A stretch of DNA of 64,000 nt from an uncultured Bacteroidia bacterium (GCA_902774295.1 CACYHP010000004.1:70489-134488), one strand, 5' to 3'; counted from the stretch's first letter, positions 6,749 to 41,112 are shown. A program made the numbers and translations. The notes: generated from the sequence alone by a model not told the origin.

Positions 6749-7384
6749 ATGAAAAGAAGTTTTAAACCCGGAACAATGCTTTATCCACTGCCGGTGGTGA
6801 TGGTCTCGTGCGGCGACAGCCCCGAGAACTATAACATCATCACGGTGGCGTGGACAGGTATTTTATGCTCCGACCCGCCGATGTGCTACATATCGGTGAG
6901 AAAAGAACGCCACTCACATGCGATAATCTCCAGAACAAAAGAGTTTGTGATAAACCTCACGACAGATGCCTTGGCAAAAGCCACCGACTGGTGCGGCGTA
7001 CGCTCTGGAAGAGATCACAACAAGTTCAAAGAGATGCATCTCACGCCTGAGCAGGCCGAGGTGGTCAAAGCTCCTATGATAGCTGAATCGCCAGTAAATA
7101 TCGAGTGCAAAGTGGTTGATATCAAGGAGTTAGGCTCGCACGATATGTTTATGGCAGAGATAGTGGCAGTTCATGGTGACGAAAAATATTTCGACCCGAG
7201 CACAGGACTTTTCCAGCTCAATCAGGCCGAGTTGATAACATATTCGCACGGGAAATACTATTCTTTGGGCGAGAAAATAGGCAAATTCGGTTTCTCAGTA
7301 GAGAAAATTCAACATAAAAGGAAAACTTCCTCATCGTCATTTCGACCGGAGCGAAGCGTAGTGGAGAAATCTCCTAAAAAATAG
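6749..7384 (+). CDS. Flavin reductase-like (FMN-binding split-barrel) protein with a repeat-derived C-terminal tail
   Basis: YPLPVVMVSCG...NIITVAW.G...P....ISVR pattern of flavin reductase-like domains. The last ~17 aa (SSSSFRPERSVVEKSPKK) are encoded by the family A repeat. Confidence 0.75.
   Translation: MKRSFKPGTMLYPLPVVMVSCGDSPENYNIITVAWTGILCSDPPMCYISVRKERHSHAIISRTKEFVINLTTDALAKATDWCGVRSGRDHNKFKEMHLTPEQAEVVKAPMIAESPVNIECKVVDIKELGSHDMFMAEIVAVHGDEKYFDPSTGLFQLNQAELITYSHGKYYSLGEKIGKFGFSVEKIQHKRKTSSSSFRPERSVVEKSPKK
7336..7374 (+). repeat. Family A dispersed element, copy 1 (inside a CDS 3' end)
   Basis: GTCATTTCGACCGGAGCGAAGCGTAGTGGAGAAATCTCC. Confidence 0.85.
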
Positions 7385-7391
7385 ACGAAAA

Positions 7392-8009
7392 ATGGATTAC
7401 ATTAAAGTTAAAGGCTTACAAAAAGACGAAGTCATCGGTTTGGTGAAGGAATGGATCAAGTTGTATCCTCATTCTTTCAACCCGGAAGTGAATTTTTGGT
7501 TTTACGAACTCGCTGAGGATCAGGTGATTATCGGCTTGCACGATGATTTGAGCACCTTGGCGGTCAGCCTGTTGGTCATTTATCTGACTTCAGCATTGAA
7601 AGACTCCACTGAGGTCGATAATGTTGTTGCATACCTCACTGTTGATGACAACGAAATCTTGTTAAAACAGAATTACGGCCGTCGCGCAAAGATCGTGGCG
7701 AAAGGTACCGATGACGACAACACTGGCGTGATAATCCTTTTGGAAAACAACTATTGTGTCGACTATTATTTCCGTGGCAAAGCACATCAGATCAAAAATC
7801 ACGGATTTGTCTTCTTGGAACCATCACTTCCCGAATCCATTGAAAACGCTGAGAAAGACGAGATTTTTGTTGGTGACATTGTCCCGAAGAAAAAGATTGA
7901 GCAATCGCTTGAACCTGATGCGTCACCATGGAAGAAGCTGATGTGGTATGCCATCTGCACTGCTGTCGGTCTCGGCATCGGATTCCTGCTGGTTTACCTA
8001 TATTTTTAA
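7392..8009 (+). CDS. Hypothetical protein with a C-terminal transmembrane anchor
   Basis: 205-aa ORF with no motif I recognise. The C-terminal hydrophobic helix is LMWYAICTAVGLGIGFLLVYLYF. Confidence 0.45.
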   Translation: MDYIKVKGLQKDEVIGLVKEWIKLYPHSFNPEVNFWFYELAEDQVIIGLHDDLSTLAVSLLVIYLTSALKDSTEVDNVVAYLTVDDNEILLKQNYGRRAKIVAKGTDDDNTGVIILLENNYCVDYYFRGKAHQIKNHGFVFLEPSLPESIENAEKDEIFVGDIVPKKKIEQSLEPDASPWKKLMWYAICTAVGLGIGFLLVYLYF

Positions 8010-8018
8010 TGAGCTACC

Positions 8019-8055
8019 GTCATTTCGACCGAAGCGAAGCATAGTGGAGAAATCC
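8019..8055 (+). repeat. Family A dispersed element, copy 2 (intergenic)
   Basis: GTCATTTCGACCGAAGCGAAGCATAGTGGAGAAATCC, 10 nt after the stop of the preceding ORF. Confidence 0.85.
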
Positions 8056-8086
8056 TATTTAATCCAAATAAAATAAAAAAGGAAAC

Positions 8087-9478
8087 GTGTTAACAAAATT
8101 CCAGAACTACATTGAGTCAAACCACCTTATCAATAAAGGTGACCGCATCCTCGTCGCCCTGAGCGGCGGCGTCGACTCGATGGTTTTGGCGGAGTTACTT
8201 AGGCGGGGCGGCTATGACATAGCCTTTGCACACTGCAATTTCCATCTGCGTGGCAAAGAATCGGACGGCGATGAACAATTTGTCAGAGAATATGCCGAAA
8301 GGGTAGGAGTGAAACTCTTTGTACGCCAATTCGACACCTTGGAATACGTTGAAACACAAAAGGTCTCCGTTGAGATGGCCGCCCGCGAACTGCGCTACGC
8401 CTGGTTCAACGATTTGATTAACGCCAACGAACACATCAGTTCGACCGAATCGCATGTCCACCCTGTCATTTCGACCGAGCGCAGCGAGTGGAGAAATCTC
8501 CTCTTCGACAAGCTGGCTCTCGCTCATCACGCTGACGACCAAATCGAGACCTTCTTCATCAACCTTCTTCGTGGCTCCGGCATCAAAGGCTTGAAAGCGA
8601 TGCAGCCTCGTAACGGCATGTATATCAGACCTTTACTGTGGGCTTCACGTGAAGAAATCAAGAAGTTTGCAATTGAAAACAGCATCCAATGGCGCGAAGA
8701 CAGCACCAACAACGACACTGTCTATCTTCGCAATAAAATCCGTCATGAGCTGATGCCCGTTTTCGACTCGATTAAACCTGAAGCACGAGAAAAGATTCTT
8801 GAATCAGTCAATCACTTAGCCTCTGAAAATCAATTATATAGAGAACTTTTAAAAGAAAAGATATCTCAAATTGAAACCGTTGATGGCGTTTTGCACTCAA
8901 TTCCTAAACGTCATTTCGAGCGTAGCAAAGCGGAGTCGAGAAATCCTCTTGGTCTCCAACTCCTTTTTGAGTGGATTAGAAATTATGATTTCTCATATTC
9001 CCAATGCGAATCAATTTTCGCTGCTCTTGACGGAGAATCTGGCAAGGAATTTTATTCTGATGAGTATCAATTAGTTATCGAGAAAGAAACAATAGAAATT
9101 TTTCCTATTGATCCTGTACAAACAAGGCATAATTTATCCCAACGGGTGACAATACAACCAGTACGGACAAGGCATGCTTTGTCCCTGCTTATAACAGATA
9201 ATCCCAATATCGCCCAGCTTGATTACGATAAATTAAAACTGCCACTCCAAACCCGTTTTTGGCAACAAGGCGACCGCTTTCACCCTCTCGGGATGCGCGG
9301 CACAAAGCTCGTCTCCGATTTCTTTAACGATAATGATTTCACCACTTTTCAAAAGAAAAACACTCTGATTTTGACGGATAATGAAGGCGAAATCGTGTGG
9401 ATTGTCGGCTATCGCATCGACGATAGGTTTAAAATCACAGAAAAAACAAAAACCATTTATCAAATAGTTGCGGAATAA
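8087..9478 (+). CDS. tilS: tRNA(Ile)-lysidine synthetase, carrying several in-frame repeat insertions
   Basis: PP-loop SGGVDS, HCNFHLRG, AHHADDQIETF, C-terminal TilS domain. GTG start as in the ORF track. Confidence 0.85.
   Translation: MLTKFQNYIESNHLINKGDRILVALSGGVDSMVLAELLRRGGYDIAFAHCNFHLRGKESDGDEQFVREYAERVGVKLFVRQFDTLEYVETQKVSVEMAARELRYAWFNDLINANEHISSTESHVHPVISTERSEWRNLLFDKLALAHHADDQIETFFINLLRGSGIKGLKAMQPRNGMYIRPLLWASREEIKKFAIENSIQWREDSTNNDTVYLRNKIRHELMPVFDSIKPEAREKILESVNHLASENQLYRELLKEKISQIETVDGVLHSIPKRHFERSKAESRNPLGLQLLFEWIRNYDFSYSQCESIFAALDGESGKEFYSDEYQLVIEKETIEIFPIDPVQTRHNLSQRVTIQPVRTRHALSLLITDNPNIAQLDYDKLKLPLQTRFWQQGDRFHPLGMRGTKLVSDFFNDNDFTTFQKKNTLILTDNEGEIVWIVGYRIDDRFKITEKTKTIYQIVAE
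8437..8456 (+). repeat. Family A element, partial copy inside tilS
   Basis: CAGTTCGACCGAATCGCATG resembles the 5' half of the family A element. Confidence 0.45.
8465..8502 (+). repeat. Family A element, copy 3 (in-frame inside tilS)
   Basis: GTCATTTCGACCGAGCGCAGCGAGTGGAGAAATCTCC, translated as VISTERSEWRNL. Confidence 0.85.
8910..8947 (+). repeat. Family A element, copy 4 (in-frame inside tilS, different frame)
   Basis: GTCATTTCGAGCGTAGCAAAGCGGAGTCGAGAAATCC, translated as RHFERSKAESRNP. Confidence 0.8.
9116..9150 (+). repeat. Family C palindrome, degenerate copy plus CCCAACGG linker, inside tilS
   Basis: GTACAAACAAGGCATAATTTATCCCAACGGGTGAC, translated as VQTRHNLSQRV. Confidence 0.5.
9165..9184 (+). 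repeat. Family C 20-nt palindrome inside tilS
   Basis: GGACAAGGCATGCTTTGTCC (one G-T mismatch), translated within VRTRHALSLL. Confidence 0.75.
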
Positions 9479-9488
9479 GAATTTTTAT

Positions 9489-9496
9489 TATCTTTG
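9489..9496 (+). promoter_or_regulatory. -7 box (TATCTTTG) for the dsbD-like gene
   Basis: Matches TAnnTTTG about 54 nt upstream of 9550. Confidence 0.45.
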
Positions 9497-9549
9497 TAAC
9501 CCGAAATAAAACTTTAATCAATTTATAAATTATTGAAGAACAACGAGTT

Positions 9550-11592
9550 ATGAAGAAACTTACAATTATTTTAGTGGCGTTTTTCGCATTAATGATGCCT
9601 TTTGCGTCGGTTGCCCAGATTTATGATCCTGTGCAATGGAGCTTCTCGACGGAGTCGCTGGGAAATAACGAGTATAATGTTATTTTCAAGGCACAAATCG
9701 AAGCAGGATGGCACATTTATTCGCAAAATCTTAAGGGAGAAGGCCCAATCCCGACAACATTCCTGTTCGCAGAAGATTCAAAATATGAAAGAATAGGCGA
9801 GGTGACAGAGGGCGAGGCAATTGTCCATTATGACAATGCTTTCGGTATCGAATTGAATTATTTTGAGAAAGAGGCTATATTCACTCAGAAAGTGAAAGTG
9901 CTTGGAAAAGAACCGGTTGCAGTGAAAGGTGAGCTGGAATTCATGGTTTGCAACGATGGTATGTGCCTGCCTCCAACCCAAGTGGAGTTTGACATAAACC
10001 TCGATGGCGGAACTATAGCAAATGCTGAAGCTAAAGAAGGCGACAGCTTGCTTTCAATGATTCTTCAGGCAATTCTTTGGGGCTTGGCAGCATTGCTTAC
10101 TCCTTGCGTCTTCCCGATGATTCCTATGACAGTGTCGTTCTTCCTCCACGGAAGCGAGAATAAGGCTGCTGGTCGTTTCAAAGCCATTATGTACTTCGTA
10201 TTCATAGTGTTGCTTTACACTCTGCCAATCGCAGTCATCATCATGGTGACATGGCTCTTCGGCGGCGACAGCGTCACTGGCGATATCTTCAACTGGCTGT
10301 CAACACACTGGCTCCCGAATATCATCTTCTTCCTGGTGTTTATGGTGTTTGCTGCATCGTTCTTCGGAGCATTCGAAATCGTGCTTCCAAGCAGCCTTGT
10401 CAACAAATCTGATTCCAACTCTGAGAAGAAAGGTCTCGCTGGCGTGTTCTTCATGGCTCTGACGCTTGTTTTGGTGTCATTCGCCTGCACAGGTCCTATC
10501 GTCGGAACAGTACTCATCAAATCAACTTCAGGTGAGTTCTGGACCCCGATTCTCACCATGTTCTGCTATGCAGTGACATTTGCATTGCCGTTCGCACTCT
10601 TTGCGATGTTCCCGTCGATGCTGAAAAATCTGCCAAAGAGCGGTGGCTGGCTCAACACAGTGAAGGTCATCCTTGGTTTCATCGAGGTCGCTCTCGGCTT
10701 CAAGTTCTTGAGCGTCGCTGACCAGACATACCACTGGCATTTACTCGATCGTGAGGTCTATCTCGGCATCTGGATCGTGTGCTTCGCAATGCTTGGATTC
10801 TACCTTTTGGGCAAAATCAAGTTTAAAAACGACGACCCGGTCGAGCATATCAGTGTCGGCCGTTTGATATTGAGTATCATAACCTTTACATTCGTGGTTT
10901 ATATGATCCCTGGCATGTGGGGTGCACCTCTTAAGGCTCTCTCAGGCTATCTGCCGCCACAACAGACCCTCGATTTCGACCTCAAACGTATCAATCAGGA
11001 GAATGCTGACAAGGTTATCGAATATATCCAGCAGAATATGAAGGCTGCTCCTGCAGCTCAAGCCCAGCAAAATGTGGCTCAAACAAATACTGAGCTCTGC
11101 GAGTCACCACGTTTCAACGATATCTTCCATTTGCCTCACGGCTTGAAGGGATATTTCGACTATGAACAGGCTTTGGCATGCGCAAAGGCACAGAATAAGC
11201 CTCTTTACGTAGACTTCACCGGTCACGGATGCGTCAATTGCCGTGAGATGGAAGCTAACGTGTGGAGCGACCCGCGCGTCTTAAAGATGTTGCGTGAAGA
11301 TTATATCATCGTGGCGCTTTACGTCGACGACAAGACCAAGCTTCCTGAAGAAGAATGGGTCGTTGGCGGTGACGGCAAGATGAAGAAGACCATCGGTCGT
11401 AAATATGCCGACTTCCAAATCACCAAGTTCGGCACCAACGCCCAGCCATATTACTGCCTCATGGGTCACAATGGCGAGCTTCTCCACGAGCCACGCGCCT
11501 ACAACCTCGACAAAGACGGCTTCGTCCAGTTCCTCAAAGAGGGCCTCGAAAACTTCAAAAACGGGGTTTTGGTAAGAAACATTAACGAATAA
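9550..11592 (+). CDS. dsbD: Thiol:disulfide interchange protein, DsbD family
   Basis: Signal peptide, N-terminal DsbD-alpha-like domain, CcdA-like multi-TM core (LTPCVFPMIP), C-terminal thioredoxin fold with GCVNC. Confidence 0.8.
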   Translation: MKKLTIILVAFFALMMPFASVAQIYDPVQWSFSTESLGNNEYNVIFKAQIEAGWHIYSQNLKGEGPIPTTFLFAEDSKYERIGEVTEGEAIVHYDNAFGIELNYFEKEAIFTQKVKVLGKEPVAVKGELEFMVCNDGMCLPPTQVEFDINLDGGTIANAEAKEGDSLLSMILQAILWGLAALLTPCVFPMIPMTVSFFLHGSENKAAGRFKAIMYFVFIVLLYTLPIAVIIMVTWLFGGDSVTGDIFNWLSTHWLPNIIFFLVFMVFAASFFGAFEIVLPSSLVNKSDSNSEKKGLAGVFFMALTLVLVSFACTGPIVGTVLIKSTSGEFWTPILTMFCYAVTFALPFALFAMFPSMLKNLPKSGGWLNTVKVILGFIEVALGFKFLSVADQTYHWHLLDREVYLGIWIVCFAMLGFYLLGKIKFKNDDPVEHISVGRLILSIITFTFVVYMIPGMWGAPLKALSGYLPPQQTLDFDLKRINQENADKVIEYIQQNMKAAPAAQAQQNVAQTNTELCESPRFNDIFHLPHGLKGYFDYEQALACAKAQNKPLYVDFTGHGCVNCREMEANVWSDPRVLKMLREDYIIVALYVDDKTKLPEEEWVVGGDGKMKKTIGRKYADFQITKFGTNAQPYYCLMGHNGELLHEPRAYNLDKDGFVQFLKEGLENFKNGVLVRNINE

Positions 11593-11615
11593 AGTTAAAA
11601 ATAGATAAAAACAAT

Positions 11616-11644
11616 GTAGAGACGTCATAATATGGCGTCTCTAC
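11616..11644. terminator. Family B hairpin terminator between convergent genes
   Basis: GTAGAGACGTCA-taata-TGGCGTCTCTAC followed by TTTTTT. Confidence 0.7.
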
Positions 11645-11650
11645 TTTTTT

Positions 11651-11679
11651 AATCTGTGCTAATCTGTGTAATCTGTGAG
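11651..11679. repeat. Tandem AATCTGTG(nn) x3
   Basis: AATCTGTGCT AATCTGTGT AATCTGTGAG. The 12-mer AATCTGTGTAAT also follows the family B hairpin at 3412-3423. Confidence 0.8.
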
Positions 11680-11680
11680 A

Positions 11681-13045
11681 TTATTTCCCTGCGTAATGCT
11701 GATAGAACTGCACAATAGTCTCAATTCCCTTGAAGAAATGGTCGAGTCTGTAGTTTTCGTTCGGTGAGTGGATGGCGTCCTCGCCCAAACCGAATCCCAT
11801 CAGGATAGACTTTATTCCCAACACTTTCTCGAAACGAGCGATAATCGGGATACTTCCGCCGCTTCTCATCGGGATAGGCAACTTGCCGTAGGTGTCGAAA
11901 TATGCCTGCTCAGCAGCTTTGTATGCCGGAAGCTCGATAGGGCAGCCGTAAGCCTCGCCACCATGTAATGTGGTAACCTTAACTGTCACATAATCAGGAG
12001 CTATGCTCTCAAAATATTCTTTGAACAGCTTGCCAATCTTCTCGTGGTCTTGGTTAGGAACTAAACGGCACGAAATCTTGGCGTAAGCCTTCGACGGAAG
12101 CACTGTCTTCGAGCCTTCGCCTGTGTAACCGCCCCAGATTCCGCATAAATCGAAGGTCGGACGGATACCGACGCGCTCAATCTTGGTGTATCCTTTTTCG
12201 CCGCGTAATGCCTTCACACCTAATGCTTTCTTGAATTCTTCCTCGTTATATGGTGCCATATTGAGCATCTCGCGTTCTTTAGCTGATGACTCCACGACAT
12301 CGTCATAGAAATGAGGAATGGTGATGTGGTTGTTCTCGTCCATCACACCTGCCACCATCTCGCATAGTGTGTTGATAGGGTTGGCGACAGCGCCGCCGAA
12401 CAGTCCTGAATGCAAGTCGGCGTTAGGACCAGTCACTTCCACTTCCCAGTATGCCAAACCACGCAAACCCGTTGTGATAGAAGGTGTATCGTGTGATATC
12501 ATGCTGGTGTCAGATACCAAGATGACATCGGCTTTTACGAGGTCTTTGTACTCCTCAATCCACTTTGAGAGGCTGCCAGAACCTATTTCTTCCTCACCTT
12601 CGAGCATGAATTTCACGTTGCAAGGGAGGGTTCCGGTCTGCATCATTGTCTCAAATGCCTTGGCATGCATGAAAGCCTGACCTTTGTCGTCGTCAGCACC
12701 GCGAGCCCATATCTTACCGTCTTTGATGACTGGCTCAAACGGGTCGGTGTGCCACAGCTCGATAGGATCAACAGGCATCACGTCGTAATGACCGTATACC
12801 AACACTGTTGGCAATTTAGGGTCGATGATTTTCTCGCCGTAAACGATAGGGTTGCCCTCTGTCGGCATCACCTCTGCCTTGTCGGCGCCAGCCTTCAGGA
12901 TGCTGTCTCTCCAATATTCCGCAGCCTTAATCATATCCGGCTTATGTGCTGATTCCGAGCTAATAGACGGAATTCTAATCAGTCCGAACAACTCGTCCAA
13001 AAAACGCTGTTCGTTTTCCTTAATGTAACTTTGTATTTTATTCAT
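11681..13045 (-). CDS. M20-family dipeptidase (ArgE/DapE/PepV-like)
   Basis: FLDELFGLIRIPSISS, HYDVMP, GADDDKGQ, EGEEEIGS motifs. Start set at MNKIQSY (ATG at 13043-13045); the longer ORF to 13120 reads through a family A repeat. Confidence 0.8.
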   Translation of the reverse strand: MNKIQSYIKENEQRFLDELFGLIRIPSISSESAHKPDMIKAAEYWRDSILKAGADKAEVMPTEGNPIVYGEKIIDPKLPTVLVYGHYDVMPVDPIELWHTDPFEPVIKDGKIWARGADDDKGQAFMHAKAFETMMQTGTLPCNVKFMLEGEEEIGSGSLSKWIEEYKDLVKADVILVSDTSMISHDTPSITTGLRGLAYWEVEVTGPNADLHSGLFGGAVANPINTLCEMVAGVMDENNHITIPHFYDDVVESSAKEREMLNMAPYNEEEFKKALGVKALRGEKGYTKIERVGIRPTFDLCGIWGGYTGEGSKTVLPSKAYAKISCRLVPNQDHEKIGKLFKEYFESIAPDYVTVKVTTLHGGEAYGCPIELPAYKAAEQAYFDTYGKLPIPMRSGGSIPIIARFEKVLGIKSILMGFGLGEDAIHSPNENYRLDHFFKGIETIVQFYQHYAGK

Positions 13046-13076
13046 ATTATTTAATTTTAAATTGTTCATTTTTGTT

Positions 13077-13115
13077 GTCATTTCGAGTGTAGCGAAGCGA
13101 AATCGAGAAATCTCC
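13077..13115 (+). repeat. Family A element, copy 5
   Basis: GTCATTTCGAGTGTAGCGAAGCGAAATCGAGAAATCTCC. It forms an inverted pair with copy 6. Confidence 0.85.
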
Positions 13116-13131
13116 TTCAATTAATCAGTTT

Positions 13132-13923
13132 CTATTTTGCAGGAGATTTCTCCACTGCGCTCCATTTCATTTCGCTTCGGTCGAAATGACGGAGGGACAT
13201 CGTCTCACCGTCGAACTCCGCGTATGTGTAATCCCAGATCCAGTTTCCAACCACCGTTGTCACTGCGTGCTCGCCGGTTTTGTACTGCATCGGCTTGTGC
13301 TGGTGTCCGAACACAAAGAAATCTATTGTAGGGTCTTTCTGCGCCTCGGCCATCGCGTATTTGTACAGCCGTGTGTTCTCGACGTCTTTATAGAAATTGC
13401 CTTCCGACTCTTTTTTAAGCTTTTTGACTCTATGATTATGAGACCATTTCAACGCTACTCTTATTCCAAAATCAGGGTGAATATGACGGAAACACCATTG
13501 TAAGAACCTGTTTTCGAACACGCTCTTCAGGAATTTGTAGCCACCGTCGCCTTCACCACGACCGTCGCCGTGAACCAAAAAGAATTTCTTGCCCTTTAGC
13601 ACCATTATTTCTGGATCTCTATGCACCTGAATGCCAATCTCTTCCTGCAGATACGAGAATGTCCAGAGGTCGTGGTTGCCAGCAAAGAGATGCACTGGGA
13701 TGCCGCTGTCGATAAACTCGGCGAGCTTTCCAAGCAACCTTACATGACCTTTCGGAATCACCGTTTTGTACTCGTACCAGAAATCGAACAAGTCGCCCAT
13801 AAGGAAGAGCTCCTCGCAGTTTTTTTTGATGGAGTCAAGAAACTCGAGAAGCATTTTCTCCCGTCGCTGGCTGTCTTCGAGGGTCGGTACACCGAGGTGG
13901 AAATCTGTTGCAAAGTAAATCAT
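13132..13923 (-). CDS. lpxH: UDP-2,3-diacylglucosamine diphosphatase with a repeat-derived C-terminal tail
   Basis: Calcineurin-like metallophosphoesterase motifs (DFHLG, GDLFDFW, GNHD). It lies beside lpxK. The tail RHFDRSEMKWSAVEKSPAK is encoded by family A copy 6. Confidence 0.8.
   Translation of the reverse strand: MIYFATDFHLGVPTLEDSQRREKMLLEFLDSIKKNCEELFLMGDLFDFWYEYKTVIPKGHVRLLGKLAEFIDSGIPVHLFAGNHDLWTFSYLQEEIGIQVHRDPEIMVLKGKKFFLVHGDGRGEGDGGYKFLKSVFENRFLQWCFRHIHPDFGIRVALKWSHNHRVKKLKKESEGNFYKDVENTRLYKYAMAEAQKDPTIDFFVFGHQHKPMQYKTGEHAVTTVVGNWIWDYTYAEFDGETMSLRHFDRSEMKWSAVEKSPAK
13142..13190 (-). repeat. Family A element, copy 6 (longer variant, inside the lpxH 3' end)
   Basis: The reverse complement reads GTCATTTCGACCGAAGCGAAATGAAATGGAGCGCAGTGGAGAAATCTCC. 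Confidence 0.85.
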
Positions 13924-14750
13924 CAGAGTTGAATCTCGTCAAGGCGTTTAAACATCTCTTGTATAATTGCTGTCATCTTCGGTTCTGCCACATTAGCTGC
14001 GTTGAGCACCTCTTCGTGTGTGACTTCAACAGGTATCTCCTGTCCGCCAAGGTCTGTTATAACTGACACGGCAAAAACTGTAAGTCCGCAATGGCGTGCC
14101 ACTATGACCTCAGGCACCGTTGACATTCCCACGCAGTCGCCACCTATTATGCGATAGTAACGATATTCGGCAGGCGTCTCATACGAAGGACCTGAATCTG
14201 CAACGTAAACGCCGTGCTGAATATGTATATCCAACTTCTTAGCGACATCGTCGGCCAAAACAATCAATCTGTGGTCGTATGCGTCGCTCATGTCTGGGAA
14301 ACGTGTGCCTATGCGCTCGTCATTGTTGCCGATGAGCGGGTTAGGCAACAGGTTGATATGATCTGTGATGAACATAATATCGCTTACACGGAAACTCGGG
14401 TTGATGCCGCCGCTGGCGTTTGAAAGCACTAACAGCTTGGCTCCCAAATATTTAATAACTCTAATAGGGAAGGTGATAAGTGAGGTGCTGTATCCTTCAT
14501 AATAATGGAAACGGCCCTGCATGGCAACCACCTTGCGTCCACTAATAGTACCGAAAACCAGCTGTCCTTTATGGCCTTTCACTGTCGATATCGGGAAATT
14601 CGGAACTTCTGCAAACGGTATTGTATATTGAACATCCATTACATTAACCAATCCGCCCAAACCCGAACCTAAAACTATACCAATCTCCGGCTTAAAACCA
14701 TCAGTCTTAGATTTGATAAAATCTACTGTCTCAAGAATTTTTTCAAACAT
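13923..14750 (-). CDS. Purine nucleoside phosphorylase (PNP family, inosine/guanosine type)
   Basis: GSGLG, RFHYYEGY, VGMSTVPE motifs. Confidence 0.85.
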   Translation of the reverse strand: MFEKILETVDFIKSKTDGFKPEIGIVLGSGLGGLVNVMDVQYTIPFAEVPNFPISTVKGHKGQLVFGTISGRKVVAMQGRFHYYEGYSTSLITFPIRVIKYLGAKLLVLSNASGGINPSFRVSDIMFITDHINLLPNPLIGNNDERIGTRFPDMSDAYDHRLIVLADDVAKKLDIHIQHGVYVADSGPSYETPAEYRYYRIIGGDCVGMSTVPEVIVARHCGLTVFAVSVITDLGGQEIPVEVTHEEVLNAANVAEPKMTAIIQEMFKRLDEIQL

Positions 14751-15780
14751 AGTTCAAAATCAAATTGTTAAATATATCCTCTTCTATCTCGTCATTGAAA
14801 TGTACCTCGATCGGAATGGTGAATAGCGGCACATTCTCAAACCTGTTGATAAACGAAGAGTTTGTTAATCGCATTAAATCTTTTTCAGTCGTTACAATGA
14901 TTTTATTTTTGCCAATCACACTGTCGTAACCATCCAAAATAATATCAATATCATTGTCATTAAAATGATGATGGTCGTCGAAATATTTGGTAATCAATGT
15001 GTTGTATTTTCTCTTTAAATAATCTTCAAGTGGATATGGATTGGCTATGCCACAAAACAGATAAACCGATTTCATGTCCTGCAATACCGTCTCTTTTGCA
15101 GTATTGTTGACTGGCTTAAGTCCTTGAAAATCAATATAAGTGAAGAAAACTTTCTGATATGGTTTTGCATCGATTAGTTGTACCACATCGCGTTTGTCGT
15201 ATGGCAAAAGCACCCTCGGCGATTTCGTAACTATAATAATATCAGCACGTTTAGCGGCGCATTTTAAGTCACGAAGCTTTCCTGCCGGGATGAGCATATC
15301 TTTTTTGTAAATATTGTAATACTCGGTAAGAAGTACGTTGATTCCCGGTTTTATTTTTCTATGCTGATAAGCGTCATCGAGAAGTATGACATCCGGAGCC
15401 TTTTCCTGACGCATTAGACGATAAACGCCTTCGCATCTGTCTTCGTCGACAGCCACTGTTATATTGTTGAATTTCAATCTGTATTGTAGTGGTTCATCGC
15501 CAATTTGCTCTGCCGTAGAGTCTTCGTTCGCAAGGATGAAACCTTCTGTTTTTCTGCCGTAGCCTCTGCTTAATACAGCCACATTCGCTTTGTCCTTCAA
15601 AAGCCTGATAAGATATTCAGTATGAGGCGTTTTGCCAGTTCCGCCGAGCGCAAGATTTCCGATGCAGATTGTAGGAACACTGAAACTTTTCGATTTCAAT
15701 ATCCCACTGTCATATAGCCAATGGCGAATGTACAAAACAATCGCATATAGCCATGATAATGGTGCTAATAATCTGTTCAT
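14743..15780 (-). CDS. lpxK: Tetraacyldisaccharide 4'-kinase
   Basis: P-loop GNLALGGTGKTP, SRGYGRK, DDAYQH motifs. Confidence 0.85.
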   Translation of the reverse strand: MNRLLAPLSWLYAIVLYIRHWLYDSGILKSKSFSVPTICIGNLALGGTGKTPHTEYLIRLLKDKANVAVLSRGYGRKTEGFILANEDSTAEQIGDEPLQYRLKFNNITVAVDEDRCEGVYRLMRQEKAPDVILLDDAYQHRKIKPGINVLLTEYYNIYKKDMLIPAGKLRDLKCAAKRADIIIVTKSPRVLLPYDKRDVVQLIDAKPYQKVFFTYIDFQGLKPVNNTAKETVLQDMKSVYLFCGIANPYPLEDYLKRKYNTLITKYFDDHHHFNDNDIDIILDGYDSVIGKNKIIVTTEKDLMRLTNSSFINRFENVPLFTIPIEVHFNDEIEEDIFNNLILNYV

Positions 15781-15817
15781 CGGTCAATTTTAAATACAAA
15801 CGTACAAATATACAAAT

Positions 15818-15825
15818 TATTTTTG
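15818..15825 (+). promoter_or_regulatory. -7 box (TATTTTTG) for the Nif3-like gene
   Basis: Matches TAnnTTTG 45 nt upstream of the ATG at 15870. The opposite strand carries TACGTTTG/TATATTTG boxes (15797-15812) for lpxK. Confidence 0.4.
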
Positions 15826-15869
15826 ATTCGTGCATCATTATTTTTATTATTTTAGCGAAAATTTTTGAA

Positions 15870-16664
15870 ATGAATAAAGTTAGTGAAATAGTCGGATGTA
15901 TTACTGATATCGCACCTCTCAAATGGCAGGAGTCATGGGATAATGCCGGACTTCTTGTCGGTGATGCTAATATGCTGATAGACAAGGCTTTAATAACTCT
16001 TGACGTGACCGAAGCAGTTATTGACGAGGCGATAGAAAAAGGTTTTCATCTTGTGATTAGCCATCATCCGCTGATTTATCGTCCGCTGAAGCATATTTTG
16101 CCTGAAAATACGATCGAAAGAACGATTATCAAGGCGATAAAACACGACATCGCAATCGCTTGCATGCACACTAATCTCGACAACAGCTATCTCGGTGTTA
16201 GTAAATGGCTTGCAGATAAAATCGGGCTGAAAAATCTTGAGATTTTGGAGCCGATTAAGACCGATGACGACGTGTTGACCGGCGGAGGCATGGTGGGGGA
16301 GTTGGATAATGCCCTCGATGAGACCGCATTTTTGACTCTCGTGAAAAAAAATCTTAACGCAAAAGCTCTTCGCCATTCCGATTTTTTAGGTAAAAAAATT
16401 AAAAAAGTGGCGGTCTGCGGCGGCTCCGGCTTTTTCTTGCTTGATAACGTAAAGCATTGTAACGCAGACGCTTATATCACTGGCGACGTGAAATATCACG
16501 ACTTTTTCGAGGCCGATGGCAAACTCCTTCTCGTCGATGCGGGACATTATGAAACAGAACAATTTACAAAAGAATTAATTGCTGATGCTATTATTAAAAA
16601 ATTTTGTAACTTTGCAGTTTCAATTTCGAACGTTAAAACTAACTCGATAAACTATTTTGTATAA
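15870..16664 (+). CDS. Nif3-like dinuclear metal centre protein (GTP cyclohydrolase I type 2 homologue)
   Basis: WDNAGLLVGD, ISHHPLI, HTNLD, GHYETE motifs. Start moved to MNKVSEI to remove the overlap with lpxK. Confidence 0.8.
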   Translation: MNKVSEIVGCITDIAPLKWQESWDNAGLLVGDANMLIDKALITLDVTEAVIDEAIEKGFHLVISHHPLIYRPLKHILPENTIERTIIKAIKHDIAIACMHTNLDNSYLGVSKWLADKIGLKNLEILEPIKTDDDVLTGGGMVGELDNALDETAFLTLVKKNLNAKALRHSDFLGKKIKKVAVCGGSGFFLLDNVKHCNADAYITGDVKYHDFFEADGKLLLVDAGHYETEQFTKELIADAIIKKFCNFAVSISNVKTNSINYFV

Positions 16665-16682
16665 ATATTAAATTTAACATAA

Positions 16683-17471
16683 ATGGCTGATAATCAAGAA
16701 ATTAAACTCAACGAGGAAGAACAGATTGAAGTTACCGTTGAAAGAAAGTTGGTTGCACTTTACACCTTGCAACAGATTGATTCCAAGATAGATAGAATCC
16801 GCATCGTGCGCGGCGAGTTGCCTGAAGCAGTGCAAGACCTTGAAGACGAAGTCGCCGGTCTCGAAACCCGTATTGAGAATTACAACGCCGACCTGAAAAA
16901 ATTCAACACTGACGTCACAAACTACAAAATCAAAATCAAAGAAACTCAAGCTTTGATTAAAAAGTACGAAGAACAACAAAACAACGTCCGTAACAGCCGT
17001 GAATATGATTCTTTGACAAAAGAGACTGAGTATCAATCACTTGAGATTCAGCTTTGCGAAAAGAGAATCAAAGATGCGACTATCAAAATCGAGGATATCA
17101 AGACAAATCTTGAGGCTACAGAAAAGAAACTCGCAGAGCGTAAAAACGACCTCGTGGTGAAACAGTCAGAACTCAACTCAATCGTTGAAGAGACAGAAAA
17201 AGAAGAAGAGGAACTCGTCGAGAAGTCAAAGGAAAGCGAAGCTTTGATCGAAGACCGTCTGCTCGCCGCTTACAAACGCATCAGAAAAGGTGCCCGTAAC
17301 GGTTTGGCAGTCGTGAAAATCGAGCGTGATGCCTGCGGCGGATGCTTCAACAAAATCCCACCACAACACCAGCTCGATATCCGTATCCACAAGAAGATTA
17401 TCGTGTGCGAATATTGCGGCCGTATCTTGGTCGACCAAGATATCATCGACCAATACAACGCAAAGAACTGA
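16683..17471 (+). CDS. Coiled-coil protein with a C4 zinc ribbon (COG1579/DUF164-like)
   Basis: Long heptad-rich region followed by CGGCFNKIP...CEYCGRIL. This gene type is commonly found beside Nif3-like genes. Confidence 0.7.
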   Translation: MADNQEIKLNEEEQIEVTVERKLVALYTLQQIDSKIDRIRIVRGELPEAVQDLEDEVAGLETRIENYNADLKKFNTDVTNYKIKIKETQALIKKYEEQQNNVRNSREYDSLTKETEYQSLEIQLCEKRIKDATIKIEDIKTNLEATEKKLAERKNDLVVKQSELNSIVEETEKEEEELVEKSKESEALIEDRLLAAYKRIRKGARNGLAVVKIERDACGGCFNKIPPQHQLDIRIHKKIIVCEYCGRILVDQDIIDQYNAKN

Positions 17472-17476
17472 TTCTA

Positions 17477-18955
17477 TCAGTCTAATCTGAACTTGAAAGA
17501 GATGACCACCTGATTGATGTTGGTCGTCTCTTTTACTTTTGTGTCGTCAGTAAATTCATTGTTCTGACCGTACAATGCAGGATATTCAGAGTATTGCTCA
17601 TACAGTTGGTATGAGTTGTGACGCTGACTGAACACGTAAGCTAAATCAAGTGTGAAAACATGATATGTGAAGCCAAAACCGCAAGAATATGAATCCGTTC
17701 TGTAGTCTGTCTTATTCATTCCGAAAGGACTTCCGTAAAAGGCGTAACCTGCTCTGAATGCCATGGTCTGCCAACGCCATTCAGTACCCACTCTGATGTT
17801 AGATGTGGTGCTGTATGTCTTGCGGATGTAGTTGTTGAAACCCGAGTAGTTATAATCATAACTTGATGCGCGCATCAAACTGTAGTCCATGAATTCATAA
17901 TCGGCTGTAATCATTCCGAAATTGCCGAAGATGAAGGCCGCACTGGCATTCAGACGATAAGGCGTGGTCACAGTGTAAGTATATACTCCTGTAGGTGAAA
18001 TGTAGTTATAACCTGCATCGTTGAATGATGACCATGTCTCGGTGCCCCAACTTTCTTCCACTTTATATATAGTAGGTGTATGGAAGGCTGCTCCTATACG
18101 TAACCATTGAACAGGGTAGAAGATAGCTCCGATTTTGGCGTTAATACCCGTTCCTGAGTTTTTAACAACTTCTTCCTGGGCCCAGTTTCTGAAATTATCG
18201 CTGGCGTCGAGGTTAACCTCTTTATACTGCTTGGTTACCGTTTTAGTAAAATAAGGTATGTTGATAGATGCACCCAAGAAAACCTTTTCGTTGAAATTGA
18301 ATCCAGCCGCTAAGTTGAATTCACGCGATGAACCGCGCTTGCTTACGCCAAACTGCTGGTTAAGTCCACCTTGTGGAACGTCGCTGTCAATGATATTACC
18401 ATCGTAAAAATCAAGAAGATAGGTCTCCCATAATGGGAATATGCCGTTAGGAGAATAATCTTCCAAAGCATAGTCGTTGTATATGCCGTTTTGGTACAAT
18501 TCATCGATATATGCATCAATTAACGAGGTGTTGGGGTTGTCGCCATTGACGTAAGACTGGAATGTATAGTTGTTCAATTTATTGAGACCAAGAGCAAAAC
18601 TTACTGATTTAAGTGGGCTGTTGTTGTATTCCTGTGTCCATGTGAGACCAATATTGTTCACTGGCACTTTGAAAGCTCTGTCGGAGCCGTAGCTGCCTTT
18701 GTAGTCCGATTCCGTTGAAATGGAGTAGAACTCAGGTGTGAACACGAATGTCGATTTACGGAAAAGTCCTAATCCTGCCGGGTTTATCGCTATTGCTGAG
18801 AAGTCGGAGCCGACGGCGCCCATTGCGTTGCCCATTGCGGCGCTTTTTGCTGTTCCCTGATAATAAATCGAGGAGAAATCAAACATGTCGCTGTCGGTCT
18901 GCGCCATCAAAAACATTGGCGCTAATATCATTATTGTTAAAAATATCTTTTTCAT
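17477..18955 (-). CDS. Outer-membrane beta-barrel protein, FadL/OmpP1-like
   Basis: Signal peptide, N-terminal GTAKSAAMGNAMGAVGSDFSAIAINPAGLG hatch-like motif, C-terminal aromatic residue. Confidence 0.55.
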   Translation of the reverse strand: MKKIFLTIMILAPMFLMAQTDSDMFDFSSIYYQGTAKSAAMGNAMGAVGSDFSAIAINPAGLGLFRKSTFVFTPEFYSISTESDYKGSYGSDRAFKVPVNNIGLTWTQEYNNSPLKSVSFALGLNKLNNYTFQSYVNGDNPNTSLIDAYIDELYQNGIYNDYALEDYSPNGIFPLWETYLLDFYDGNIIDSDVPQGGLNQQFGVSKRGSSREFNLAAGFNFNEKVFLGASINIPYFTKTVTKQYKEVNLDASDNFRNWAQEEVVKNSGTGINAKIGAIFYPVQWLRIGAAFHTPTIYKVEESWGTETWSSFNDAGYNYISPTGVYTYTVTTPYRLNASAAFIFGNFGMITADYEFMDYSLMRASSYDYNYSGFNNYIRKTYSTTSNIRVGTEWRWQTMAFRAGYAFYGSPFGMNKTDYRTDSYSCGFGFTYHVFTLDLAYVFSQRHNSYQLYEQYSEYPALYGQNNEFTDDTKVKETTNINQVVISFKFRLD

Positions 18956-19050
18956 CTCTAATTTCTTTTCATTAATGTTAATTGTTTGTTGTCGTTTTGA
19001 GATTGTCGGGAACTTTTTTTTGTAAACAACTTAATAATTCCGTTAAACAA

Positions 19051-19097
19051 GGATTTCTCCATTTTGCTGCATTGCATTACGCTTCAGTCGAAATGAC
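19051..19097 (-). repeat. Family A element, copy 7 (intergenic, longer variant)
   Basis: GGATTTCTCCATTTTGCTGCATTGCATTACGCTTCAGTCGAAATGAC. Confidence 0.75.
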
Positions 19098-19107
19098 GGA
19101 GAGAATG

Positions 19108-20232
19108 TTATCTTCTGCCTCCACCGACACGACCGCCGCCGCCACCTATACGACCACCGCCGCCTCCAACGCTGCCCCCGCGTGAGCCTGAGTTATAACT
19201 GCCGCTGCTTCTTGGAGCGCTGGTGTTGCTTCTGGTGGTGTTAGTATTAGGTCTTGTCGTCGTGGTGTTGTTTCTCTGCGGTCTGACATATTCCGAACTT
19301 GAACGTGACTGACGGTTGCTGTTAGCCGGAGTATACGTCTTGTTCTGTGAAGACGGTCTCGTCGTCGACTGACTTGGTCTCGTTGTCGATTGACTCGGTC
19401 TGCTTGCTGACTGATTTGGTCTTGTTGTTGATTGACTTGGCCTTGTTGTCGACTGAGTCGGTCTTGTTGTCGTCTGATCCGATCTTCTTGCAGAGCTGTT
19501 CGTTGGACGTGAAATGTTGTCTGAAGAACGTCTTGAGCTCTCGCGGTTGCTTACAGCTGTATTGTTATGATGATCGGCGCTTCTTCTGCTGCTCACAGCG
19601 CTGTTTCCGCCGCCGTTATTATGACCGGATGCTCTGCGACCACTATTATTATTATAGGTGTTTATGCCACCGTGATGTGTTCCATGATGGCTGTGGTTGT
19701 AATAATTGTAATAACCTGGTCCTGGTGGATAGTATGGGTGATAAGGATAGTATGGAGGATAATATGGGTAATAGCCGCCCCATCCCCAGTAAGGATCCCA
19801 TGCATAACCCCAGTAATATGGGCTGTAGCCCCAATAAGGTCTGTATGCCGGATACCAGAACGGATCCCAGAATGGGTCCCAATAGCCGTAACCGACTCCG
19901 AATCCTACTCCAAAACCTACGCCAAAATCAACAGTTACACGGGTCTCAGGAGCCTCGTCAACGATGTAAACGGTGTCTACAACTCTGTCGATGCTATCCG
20001 TAACGGCATAATCTTTATAAATTTTGCTCGTTTTATCCTGGTTGTTGCTCTTTTCCGATTTCACTGAGTTGTTGTCAAAATAGCCGTAATTTGAGGTCAC
20101 GAGGGACTTATCGCTCTGCGAATCACTGTCGTATGGTGAATAATACGCATCGTCGTTGATAACGTTATTGCTTGATGCACAAGCAGTTAACAACACTGTT
20201 GCGGCTGCGATGATGATGAAACTCCTTTTCAT
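19108..20232 (-). CDS. Lipoprotein with extreme low-complexity regions (aromatic/Pro-rich, SQSTTRP repeats, Gly/Arg tail)
   Basis: Lipobox LLTAC|AS after MKRSFIIIAAATV (start set at the ATG at 20230-20232). See the related finding. Confidence 0.6.
   Translation of the reverse strand: MKRSFIIIAAATVLLTACASSNNVINDDAYYSPYDSDSQSDKSLVTSNYGYFDNNSVKSEKSNNQDKTSKIYKDYAVTDSIDRVVDTVYIVDEAPETRVTVDFGVGFGVGFGVGYGYWDPFWDPFWYPAYRPYWGYSPYYWGYAWDPYWGWGGYYPYYPPYYPYHPYYPPGPGYYNYYNHSHHGTHHGGINTYNNNSGRRASGHNNGGGNSAVSSRRSADHHNNTAVSNRESSRRSSDNISRPTNSSARRSDQTTTRPTQSTTRPSQSTTRPNQSASRPSQSTTRPSQSTTRPSSQNKTYTPANSNRQSRSSSEYVRPQRNNTTTTRPNTNTTRSNTSAPRSSGSYNSGSRGGSVGGGGGRIGGGGGRVGGGRR
19355..19480. repeat. Six 21-nt tandem repeats encoding (S/T)QSTTRP heptads
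   Basis: GGTCTCGTCGTCGACTGACTT-type units at 19355, 19376, 19397, 19418, 19439 and 19460. Confidence 0.85.
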
Positions 20233-20272
20233 ATTAAATTCACTTTTTATTATTACTTTGCAAAAATTTTTG

Positions 20273-20280
20273 TAATTTTG
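20273..20280 (+). promoter_or_regulatory. -7 box (TAATTTTG) for proS
   Basis: Matches TAnnTTTG 42 nt upstream of the ATG. Confidence 0.45.
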
Positions 20281-20321
20281 CACACTGAAAAACTAACAAA
20301 AATCGTACCAAACTTTTAAAA

Positions 20322-21794
20322 ATGGCAAAAGAAATTACAACACGTCAAGAAAATTATTCACAATGGTATAATGATATCGTGAATAAAGCCGAGTTGGCGG
20401 AGGGTTCCGCAGTGAGAGGTTGTATGGTGATAAAGCCTTACGGATATGCTATTTGGGAGTTTATGCATGATGCTCTCGACAAGATGTTCAAGGACACTGG
20501 TCACGTCAATGCTTATTTCCCACTTTTCATTCCAAAAAGTTTTTTCAGCAAGGAAGCCAGCCACGTTGAGGGCTTTGCTAAGGAATGCGCCGTCGTTACG
20601 CATTACCGCTTGATGAAAAACCCAGACGGACCGGGCGTTGTCGTCGATCCTGAGGCAAAACTGGAAGAAGAGTTGATAGTGCGTCCTACTTCAGAGACAA
20701 TCATTTGGGACACATATCGTAACTGGATCAAGAGCTATCGCGACCTCCCGATTTTGTGCAACCAGTGGGCTAACGTGGTGCGCTGGGAGATGCGTACACG
20801 TCTGTTCCTCCGCACAGCAGAGTTCCTGTGGCAAGAAGGTCATACCGCTCACGCCACACGTGAAGAAGCTATGGCTGAAGCCGAGAAAATGCTGGGCGTT
20901 TACGCTGATTTTGCCGAGAAATACATGGCCGTTCCGGTCATCCGCGGCATCAAATCAGCTAACGAGCGTTTCGCAGGCGCTGTCGAGACATTCTGCATCG
21001 AGGCTATGATGCAGGATGGCAAGGCATTGCAGGCCGGTACCTCACACTTCCTCGGCCAGAACTTCGCTAAGGCATTCGACGTGAAGTATCTTAATAAAGA
21101 GAATAAACTCGAATACGTATGGGCAACATCATGGGGCGTTTCAACACGTCTGATGGGTGCTTTGATTATGGCTCACTCAGATGATAACGGTCTCGTGCTG
21201 CCTCCAAAGGTCGCTCCAATCGAGGTTGTTATCGTTCCTATCTATAAGACCGACGACCAGCAGCAGGCTGTTCTCGATTACTGCGCCCAGATGAAGCAAC
21301 GTCTTGAGGCTAAAGGACTTAGAGTGAAATTCGACGACCGCGACACCCAGAAACCTGGATTCAAATTCGCTGAATGGGAGATGAAAGGCGTGCCGGTACG
21401 TCTCGCAGCAGGTCCACGCGACGTTGAGAACCAGACAGTGGAGATCGCTCGCCGCGACACCTTGACAAAACAGTCGATTTCAGAGGCTGAGATGGAAGAC
21501 CATATCCTCGGTTTGCTCGATGAGATTCAGGATAGCTTATACAACAGAGCTCTTGAATATCGTAAGGCTAACACACACCGTGTCGACACATGGGACGAGT
21601 TCAAACAAGTTATCGAAAACGGTGGATTCGCTTACGCACACTGGGACGGCACAACCGAAACAGAGCTCGCTATCAAGGAGGAGACAAAGGCTACATTACG
21701 CTGCATCCCGCTTGACGACGACTACGAAGACGGCGTCGACGTATTCTCAGGAAAACCTTCGAAGAGAAGAGTGATATTCGCCAAGGCTTACTAA
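20322..21794 (+). CDS. proS: Proline--tRNA ligase (archaeal/eukaryote-like class II form)
   Basis: 490 aa, YSQWY, class II motifs, C-terminal ProRS-C domain ending in Y. Confidence 0.9.
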
Positions 21795-30851: not shown

Positions 30852-30923
30852 TGACCCCGCCGGGATTCGAACCCGGACCGAAGGAACCGGAATCCTTAAT
30901 TCTATCCATTAGACTACGGGGCC
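30852..30923 (-). tRNA. tRNA-Arg (anticodon CCG)
   Basis: I folded the cloverleaf by hand. Acceptor GGCCCCG/CGGGGTC, anticodon arm AAGGA-TTCCGGT-TCCTT, T-arm CCGGG-TTCGAAT-CCCGG. CCA is not encoded. Confidence 0.9.
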
Positions 30924-41027: not shown

Positions 41028-41100
41028 GCGGATTTAGCTCAGCTGGCAGAGCGGAAGCTTCCCAAGCTTCAGGTCGCGGGTTCGAGCCCCGTAATCCGCT
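41028..41100 (+). tRNA. tRNA-Gly (anticodon CCC)
   Basis: Acceptor GCGGATT/AATCCGC, anticodon arm GAAGC-TTCCCAA-GCTTC, T-loop TTCGAGC. Confidence 0.9.
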
Positions 41101-41112
41101 CTTTCAGTCGAC

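Follow-up and report, generated by a model that had tools for sequence, protein, structure and literature searches.

Few non-coding features of bacterial genomes are as common as repeats resembling repetitive extragenic palindromes (REPs), and for the CGTC-tagged half of these repeats we know of no established maker of the copies. The CGTC-tagged REP superfamily was described by Di Nocera, De Gregorio and Rocco (2013, BMC Genomics 14:522; PMC3733652); it includes dRS3 of Neisseria and the Rickettsia palindromic elements RPE-4 and RPE-6, and in-frame intragenic copies have been described in it. Its four published families (CGTC-1 to CGTC-4) have a continuous stem of 8–9 bp, a loop of 4–5 nt, and a CCA tail (PMC3733652). 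The published hosts fall into five phyla and are mostly Alphaproteobacteria; Gramella forsetii is the sole host from Bacteroidetes proper, two Chlorobi are listed under Bacteroidetes/Chlorobi, and no Bacteroidales are among them (PMC3733652). Herein, we analyzed a 64-kb stretch of DNA from an uncultured Bacteroidales genome (the window, to which all coordinates refer), in which a short dispersed repeat, hereafter the element, lies both between and within genes. Taken as a whole, the observations are best explained if the element is a REP-type repeat that is non-autonomous and belongs to the YGTC ("CGTC")-tagged superfamily, a reading to which we assign a probability of about 0.72.

The window contained ten copies of YGTCATTTCGA…GAGAAATCY, eight of them full and two partial, where chance predicts zero or one. 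The 9-mer TCATTTCGA occurred nine times against 1.3 expected, and none of 100 dinucleotide shuffles reached nine. A two-ended scan (GTC-N5-GA, 4–50 nt, GA-rc(N5), where rc is the reverse complement) returned exactly the eight full copies, with zero or one hit in shuffled windows. Seven of the eight lay between 7.3 and 19.1 kb, that is, within 12 kb; the tag was CGTC in five full copies and TGTC in three. The copies were as follows:

7336–7374, plus strand: full copy with a CGTC tag in the C-terminal extension of the flavin reductase (PF01613), reading SFRPERSVVEKSP; the stop codon is at 7382–7384.
8019–8055, plus strand: full intergenic copy in sense orientation, 10 nt past the stop of a 205-aa open reading frame (ORF) and upstream of tilS.
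8435–8464, plus strand: partial, 3'-truncated unit of 30 nt (ATCAGTTCGACCGAATCGCATGTCCACCCT) adjoining the 5' side of the next copy; its TilS reading is ISSTESHVHP.
8465–8502, plus strand: full copy at tilS site 1, reading VISTERSEWRNL.
8910–8947, plus strand: full copy at tilS site 2, reading RHFERSKAESRNP.
13077–13115, plus strand: full intergenic copy, upstream of where the M20 peptidase starts and serving as the antisense partner in an inverted pair.
13142–13190, minus strand: full copy, 10 nt longer than the rest, in the C-terminal tail of the LpxH-like metallophosphoesterase, reading RHFDRSEMKWSAVEKSP; forms a doublet with 13077–13115, tags outside.
19051–19097, minus strand: full copy in sense orientation, 10 nt downstream of the stop of ORF 19108–20283 (minus).
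62889–62920, minus strand: truncated partner copy in murB, in sense orientation, reading VISSE…; forms a pair with 62933–62968, tags inside.
62933–62968, plus strand: full copy in murB, antisense to the gene, with a 12-residue reading.
The element as a single oligonucleotide sequence: GTCATTTCGACGAGCGAAGCGAGGAGAAATCT.
Predicted peptides spanning element junctions: …HPVISTERSEWR and …HFERSK.

A first-pass annotation of this DNA had listed nine copies and given five intragenic readings (the flavin reductase tail, two in TilS, the LpxH-like tail, and antisense MurB). All nine copies were found again and the five readings are correct. The partial copy placed there at 8437–8456 is present but better bounded at 8435–8464, as a 30-nt tandem unit, and the partial copy at 62889–62920, inverted with respect to 62933–62968, is an addition to that list. 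The copy at 13077–13115 sits in a mechanically called ORF; the M20 peptidase, of 453–455 aa in relatives, in fact starts 3' of it.

The sites of these copies were compared with the syntenic DNA of seven other assemblies and with the proteins of relatives (L numbers denote loci, P numbers the relatives' proteins). Orthologue identities were 73–100% for TilS and 70–98% for TilS and MurB together. The TilS relatives were 427–518 aa long, and in the alignment all length variation fell at three hot spots, two of which are the element sites. Site 1, with a single copy in the window, was empty in P0012, P0030, P0046, and P0084 and held four extra 10-residue units (VISNESHAHP) in P0048. Site 2, also with a single copy in the window, was empty in P0028, P0046, P0067, and P0084 and carried an inverted pair in P0011, P0025, P0036, and P0048. 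At the DNA level, L001 and L125 lacked the site 1 element, L127 (GGCGTTTCGAACGAGCGTAGCGAGTGGAACAGTCTCC) and L229 had it in decayed form, and the tilS gene of L126 held four 30-nt partial units (GTCATTTCGAACGAATCGCATGCCCACCCT) matching the window unit 8435–8464. At site 2, the full element was present in the window, L001, L126, and L127, with an inverted pair in L126; L003, L125, and L229 had no insertion, and the insertion in L128 was independent, was read in another frame, and had the compensated foot ATTCC/GGAAT (GTCATTCCGACCGATGGGAGGAATCTC).

The other loci varied in the same manner. MurB relatives ranged from 335 to 447 aa, the shortest reading …PSYPV-D-NNF-VKIPSGW where the window reads 21 residues; the copy at 62933–62968 was absent in P0125, P0140, P0160, P0222, and P0239. 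The complete MurB pair reads EISPLPSVGRND…VISSEVEKSP, and a full second copy was found in P0122, P0132, P0133, and P0156. The flavin reductase has a base length of 184 aa, to which the element supplies the tail in the window; it was absent from L127 and L128 (184 aa), L125 showed a clean 39-nt difference, and L126 had stacked partial units. The copy at 8019 was absent from L003 and L125, present in L001, L126, and L127, and represented in L128 by a variant with the foot ATTCC. In four relatives, the LpxH-like protein ended in …DGNEMTLKYYKN followed directly by the stop, at the place where the window has an inverted pair of ~115 nt; this pair at 13 kb was absent from L001, L125, L126, and L127. 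Between close relatives, copies are thus gained, lost, tandemly expanded, and decaying in place.

Since the TilS and MurB orthologues differ exactly at the element sites, the repeat-derived peptides are insertions and not protein motifs. Similar peptides do occur in several proteins, and one could read them as a conserved protein motif or domain to which the DNA likeness is secondary. We give this practically no chance: the same DNA is found in three sense frames, in antisense, and between genes, and the segment is missing from close orthologues and, by alignment, from the solved TilS structures. Residues 113–139 of the window TilS (site 1) correspond to three residues of Aquifex TilS (1WY5), in a linker between a helix and the next strand, and Pfam matched the TilS PP-loop domain as two separate stretches. 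An AlphaFold model of the window TilS, built on a shallow alignment, had a mean predicted local distance difference test (pLDDT) score of 51.5, too poor to place the insertions. The reading as insertions, made in the first-pass annotation, withstood the comparison with close orthologues and solved structures.

The source genome and most matches elsewhere are metagenome-assembled genomes (MAGs), so that artefacts of assembly or binning have to be considered. Their probability is negligible. The window TilS sequence occurred on seven contigs, the same insertions were present in independent assemblies from different samples, and the element also occurs in genomes of isolates, among them a complete chromosome of Pedobacter. 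The reading frames of TilS and MurB were intact in every insertion state; judging from these kept frames, the element segments are probably translated.

To define the repeat, one genome per species was scanned with GTCATTTCGA-N(10-40)-GAGAAATC. At least 120 stretches with at least 155 copies were obtained among the matches listed, and we estimate ~500 chance matches in the whole 596-Gb collection. A pyrimidine stood at both −1 and +1 in 97% of the matches and most had a self-complementary centre, indicating that nearly all of them are family members. The element consists of Y, GTC, an ATTTC foot, GA, an apical stem-loop, GA, GAAAT, C, and Y. It is 26–60 nt long, with a 5-bp foot and 10–40 nt between the feet, and its apex ranges from a mini-hairpin of the GCGAAGC type to GC stems of 8–10 bp. 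Of 162 copies, 116 had T, 41 had C, 5 had A, and none had G at position −1; the 3' tail was C followed at +1 by T (133) or C (24), with +2 mixed, that is, a pyrimidine tail and not CCA.

At least nine foot variants occurred in sister copies and were still complementary, among them ATTCC/GGAAT, ATCTC/GAGAT, ATCCT/AGGAT, ACCCT/AGGGT, ATGTT/AACAT, ACCTC/GAGGT, ATTCT/AGAAT, and the G·U variant ATTTT/GAAAT; compensated ATTCC/GGAAT copies were seen in the close relatives L126 and L128, among others. When the scan made no demand for complementarity, all five foot positions were paired in 37 of 59 distinct matches, against our chance estimate of ~0.4. At the level of covariation, the foot is shown to be base-paired. 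No variation was seen in the GTC, in the first A-T pair, or in either GA dinucleotide, and the covarying feet all started with A and mostly had T second. The internal loop sets GA opposite GA (or GA opposite A) and never GA opposite TC, which makes the element a strand-specific fold rather than a duplex palindrome. When 5'-GA-3' faces another 5'-GA-3', tandem sheared G·A pairs result, and the mini-hairpin d(GCGAAGC) has an unusually high stability. The two GA dinucleotides of the element would accordingly be expected to form a tandem sheared G·A pair, in which case only the GTC… strand would fold in this way. The better folding of this strand than of its complement, in 198 of 243 distinct copies, agrees with that.

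In several respects the element resembles the CGTC REPs. Both have an unpaired 5' CGTC or TGTC tag, a stem opening with A-T and then T-A, and, with less clear agreement, a short pyrimidine tail; both occur mostly as inverted doublets with tags outside ("HH" dimers); and both lie close behind ORFs, with some in-frame intragenic copies and no transposase gene flanked by repeats. As the element belongs with this described superfamily, the phenomenon is not new in kind. The first-pass annotation knew of no formal description of such a system in Bacteroidales, which is right in that no Bacteroidales are among the published hosts, but the superfamily, in-frame copies included, had been formally described. 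The parallel that it drew with Rickettsia palindromic elements (RPEs) proved closer than claimed, since the element has the YGTC tag and the A-T-initiated stem of the superfamily that holds RPE-4 and RPE-6. Like the element, RPEs (Ogata et al. 2000/2002, cited in PMC3733652) are inserted in frame in many unrelated functional genes, are polymorphic between relatives, and occupy linker or loop positions; compared by description and not by sequence, RPE-1 is ~100–150 bp long and confined to Rickettsia, whereas the element has 26–60 nt and occurs in many phyla. The GA-looped architecture, a Bacteroidales host, the scale of essential-gene invasion, and the identity of the foot across phyla are apparently undescribed, as judged from the literature consulted. 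Classical perfect-stem CGTC REPs with CCA-like tails were seen beside the GA-looped type in the same 8-kb stretches of L008 (a Nitrospirota MAG), L109, L022, and L074; examples are CGTCATTCCTGCGAAGGCAGGAATCCA (L008) and CGTCATGCTGAATTTATTTCAGCATC.

The element is not confined to Bacteroidales. Among the matches listed, the exact 18-nt foot was found in at least about 16 phyla, in contrast to the five published phyla of CGTC REPs, and in viral contigs. Isolate carriers included Pedobacter (including the complete chromosome), Mucilaginibacter, Croceitalea, and Flavivirga (Bacteroidota) and Fodinibius (Balneolota). MAG carriers included Clostridia, Chloroflexota, Planctomycetota, Acidobacteriota, Nitrospirota, Desulfobacterota, Alpha-, Beta-, and Gammaproteobacteria, Verrucomicrobia, Ignavibacteria, Calditrichota, Chthonomonas, Bdellovibrionales, Coriobacteriia, Uhrbacteria, and Saccharibacteria; carriers are named here by record title, MAG labels may be wrong, and many matches lay on contigs of 0.1–6 Mb. 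Contigs of IMG/VR had typical copies, up to seven per contig. About 20 of the IMG/VR loci (for example, L129, L134, L138, and L151) contained GTCATTTCGAGCTGCTTGGTAGCTGAGAAATC with identical flanks inside one conserved phage gene, which is probably a coding coincidence inherited by descent and not the element. We raise only tentatively the idea that the GA-looped YGTC-tagged hairpin is one pan-bacterial class. A partner that is either widespread or transferred horizontally would then recognize the invariant, strand-specific core of this class; candidates are RNA-binding factors and nucleases or recombinases that act on single-stranded DNA.

The arrangement of copies was analyzed across all feet. 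In 485 copies, doublets had tags outside in 104 cases and inside in 28, and 14 were tandem, with a median spacer of 24 nt; inverted doublets, with a spacer of ~24 nt, took in ~40% of the copies. Crude ORF calls put 72 of 155 copies no more than 150 nt past a stop; 37 of these were in sense and 22 in antisense orientation, and 13 stood between convergent genes. A further 22 of the 155 lay midway in long ORFs. Single copies in the Bacteroidales loci were always in sense orientation and started 2–11 nt after the stop, as at 8019 and 19097 of the window, 13443 of L001, 13423 of L125, and 13557 of L128. The 14 nt upstream of single copies were poor in G (15%) and rich in CCCT, CCTT, and CCAC. Within the window, orientation flipped with gene direction, plus copies lying in plus genes at 7–9 kb and minus copies in minus genes at 13–19 kb. 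GC skew gave no usable signal of replication direction.

Given the sense bias behind genes, the hairpin may also matter, or at least do no harm, in the 3' end of mRNA. One may go further and regard the element mainly as a 3'-end module of RNA, kept by selection because it blocks 3' exonucleases or attenuates read-through, with the intragenic copies as accidents. The constant sense orientation of the Bacteroidales single copies, the way in which orientation switches with gene direction over 5 kb, and the 72 of 155 copies past stops in other genomes agree with this. In RNA folding of 243 distinct copies, moreover, the sense strand folded better in 198 and the complement in 42, and the sense strand had about twice the G·U pairs of the antisense strand (258 vs 120). 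An RNA-level role has also been argued for REPs by Di Nocera et al. (PMC3733652). However, a cis-acting hairpin needs no invariant 18-nt foot across phyla, 22 of the 59 oriented copies past stops were antisense, and the origin of the copies is left unexplained. A T-run directly after the stem was absent at the window 3' flanks (CTCCTAAAAAA, CCTATTTAATCC, and CCTTGTTTAACG) and at most others, as judged by the flanks and with no dedicated terminator scan. Rfam gave no match at gathering score on the element in the window, and none overlapped a copy at E ≤ 1 or even at E ≤ 10. We therefore think it doubtful that an RNA function is the main account of the element.

Copies were read in three sense frames and in antisense, or lay between genes. 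Stops per frame in 250 distinct copies numbered 49, 55, and 77 in sense and 107, 109, and 96 in antisense, against ~57 and ~113 for shuffled interiors. The depletion of stop codons per frame that was to be looked for according to the first-pass annotation is thus lacking, the 250 copies being at the shuffled level. Its remark that two copies (7336 and 8019) have a TAG in one frame, and that this TAG is out of frame or substituted in the copies translated in that frame, is correct and at the same time trivial: copies survive where the frame happens to be open, with no design. Translation would then be a tolerated by-product of the element rather than its function.

How copies arise can be outlined only as a proposal. 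They would be made in trans from a folded single strand, by one of two routes: a nuclease of the HUH/Y1 type encoded elsewhere in the genome, or template switching or short-patch conversion seeded at foot-like sequences. Insertions would survive only where they are harmless, behind genes (as a hairpin in the 3' region of the mRNA) or in frame in surface linkers.

For the first route, a partner was searched for. An all-against-all BLASTP of the ORFs of 120 and then 220 loci found no protein family that recurs beside the element; the large clusters represented one phage family with the shared coding coincidence. A regular expression for the HUH…Y (HUH-Y1) motif found none in the window or in ~2 Mb of flanks, Pfam found no transposase and no integrase on 28 window ORFs, and no RAYT gene was present in the window, which is 64 kb of the source genome, or in flanks of 8–20 kb elsewhere. 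The flanks matched over 3–6 nt in 32 of 162 copies, compared with 17 of 162 when partners were shuffled, and there was no consistent target-site duplication.

The second route could also act alone, with copying that requires no transposase: a nascent strand would switch template at a foot-like sequence, or short patches would be converted, and hairpin-promoted slippage would yield tandem units. Two observations suggest this. The empty TilS site 2 alleles, of equal length, rise in likeness to the 5' foot from CGTAATTGTGAAAAACAA (L229) through CATCAGTTCGAAAAACAG (L003) to CGTCATTTCGACCGCCAG (L125), or, as peptides, from RNCEK through HQFEK to RHFDR. In several phyla (L015, L018, L027, L034, L069, L126, L165, and L225), partial units are stacked head to tail on the 5' side of a full copy, each consisting of the 5' foot (GTCATTTCGA plus 1–4 nt) and then a C/T-rich tract of 8–12 nt, with a period of 16–32 nt. 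The lack of a target-site duplication and of a linked transposase, and the clustering of seven of the eight window copies within 12 kb, point in the same direction. On the other hand, the fixed tag, GA dinucleotides, and foot across ~16 phyla remain unexplained by such copying, and the insertions with different feet at the same protein site (L128 vs the window) also fit plain tolerance of the loop. The graded empty alleles could reflect target preference or short-patch conversion, or could be relics of deleted copies. We regard copying without any transposase as possible rather than probable.

Several points weigh against the assignment to the CGTC-tagged REPs or against an actively mobile repeat. 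The element differs from the published families in having a 5-bp foot, a GA/GA (or GA/A) loop, a variable apex, and a CT or CC tail. Some differences in presence or absence are accompanied by altered flanking codons (TilS site 1, window vs L001), and these look like allelic replacement or deletion and not like fresh insertion. Folded as DNA, single window copies are not predicted to be stable hairpins and did no better than shuffles; they had minimum free energies of −1.7 to −8.1 kcal/mol with z-scores of −2.4 to +0.9, mostly ~0, small local hairpins such as GGAG-AAAT-CTCC compete in them, and interiors alone had a median folding z of 0; the nearest-neighbour model does not fully credit G·A pairs, so that single-copy energies are weak evidence either way. 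The doublet at 13070–13197 reached −46.6 kcal/mol (z = −6.7), as expected of any inverted duplication. Outside the Bacteroidales loci, the orientation bias past stops was moderate, as seen from the 37 sense and 22 antisense copies, and no two window copies at different loci were identical. With no transposase, no target-site duplication, and no identical window copies, active transposition is not demonstrated. The description of the element as a mobile or recombinogenic repeat that tolerates translation, from which the analysis started, holds in its essentials: it is dispersed, is gained and lost at the TilS and MurB sites, and is tolerated when translated, as RPEs are.

Other known repeats were also compared with the element. 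The GTAG REPs and REPINs (mobilised by RAYT, the Y1 transposase TnpA-REP) are likewise short hairpins with an unpaired foot tetranucleotide, in inverted doublets and behind genes, with plausible recognition of a single strand. However, the element lacks GT[AG]G and has YGTC in 97% of copies, and REPIN families are usually lineage-specific, whereas the foot of the element is common to many phyla. Quentin et al. (2018; PMC6006769) reported "atypical secondary structures" beside RAYT of subclass 2.6 (Bacteroidetes) and class 3 (Planctomycetes and Acidobacteria); no link between these hairpins and the element was made, and the motif is absent from the supplements of that paper. Miniature transposable elements with inverted repeats (MITEs, for example Correia/NEMIS) are similarly small, non-autonomous, and dispersed, with conserved ends and a variable centre, but the element has no target-site duplication and "terminal repeats" of only 5 bp. 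The attC sites of integrons share an imperfect single-strand hairpin 3' of genes in sense orientation, but the element has no RYYYAAC/GTTRRRY core sites and no integrase, and its flanks are syntenic housekeeping genes. A literature search for the DNA strings and peptide strings of the element returned nothing relevant.

Some structural candidates were discarded as well. An intrinsic terminator was rejected because the T-run is missing, and a hammerhead ribozyme, a k-turn, and attC were rejected by inspection, as CUGAUGA, a 3-nt bulge, and RYYYAAC/GTTRRRY, respectively, are missing.

In gene content, the window is unremarkable chromosomal DNA from an uncultured Bacteroidales bacterium, with genes for, among others, flavin reductase, TilS, DsbD, M20 peptidase, LpxH-like phosphoesterase, LpxK, ProRS, PyrD, and MurB and for tmRNA. 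The tmRNA (38585–38985, minus) and three tRNA genes (30852–30923, minus; 41028–41187, plus) are unrelated to the repeat. At the site of the copy 19051–19097, L127 lacks the element and has another GC palindrome (GGACGGACGCGGTCCGTCC; L127 ~20735–20790 vs window 18955–19108), which means that the same intergenic spot carries different repeat families by lineage. The gap between DsbD and the M20 peptidase (L001 13528–14704 vs window 11592–11681) holds variable cargo in relatives, which the window lacks; examples are an AbiEii/HTH pair (L001 and L002), AAA_14/DUF4143 (L125 and L128), and an FGE-sulfatase protein (L126). An element copy follows directly after DsbD in L001, L125, and L128.

Two further repeat families are read in the same genes. 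The first consists of perfect GC-rich palindromes tagged with GTAG or GTAC (GTACGGACAAGGCATGCTTTGTCC, GTAG-GTACAAGGCATGCCTTGTAC, and GGACAACGCATGCGTTGTCC), located as follows:

9163–9186: GTAG/GTAC palindrome, with a degenerate partner at ~9117–9140.
63254–63273: GTAG/GTAC palindrome.
63302–63321: GTAG/GTAC palindrome.

These palindromes are also translated, as VRTRHALSL in TilS and as NRTTHALSQ…VGTRHALY in MurB, and are absent from L126, L127, and the MurB proteins P0140, P0159, P0222, and P0239. The other family, GTAGAGACGCGACAGTGTCACG…CGTCTC at 63713–63760 (minus), gives a 15-residue reading near the N-terminus of MurB and is absent from P0126, P0142, P0222, and P0239. The three repeat families together make up ~59 aa (15%) of MurB, which has 394 aa in the window against 335 aa.

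The element is a sharply defined variant with fixed and covarying positions; any genome can be scanned for it, and its occurrence can be related to gene content in order to find the missing partner. One foot common to many phyla and viral contigs is unexpected if REP families are vertical and lineage-specific; a pan-bacterial class, if true, would explain why the same 18-nt foot occurs in ~16 phyla and in viral contigs although REPs are normally lineage-specific. In practical terms, such repeats yield recurrent peptide strings in "hypothetical proteins" and inflate orthologue lengths. In the essential genes tilS and murB, sites occur empty, filled, expanded, or decayed, a natural series that presents selfish hairpins turning into protein sequence outside Rickettsia, and, should the pan-bacterial class be real, the element and the GTAG-type palindromes would be a steady source of peptide in essential enzymes of this Bacteroidales lineage, ~15% of the length of MurB.

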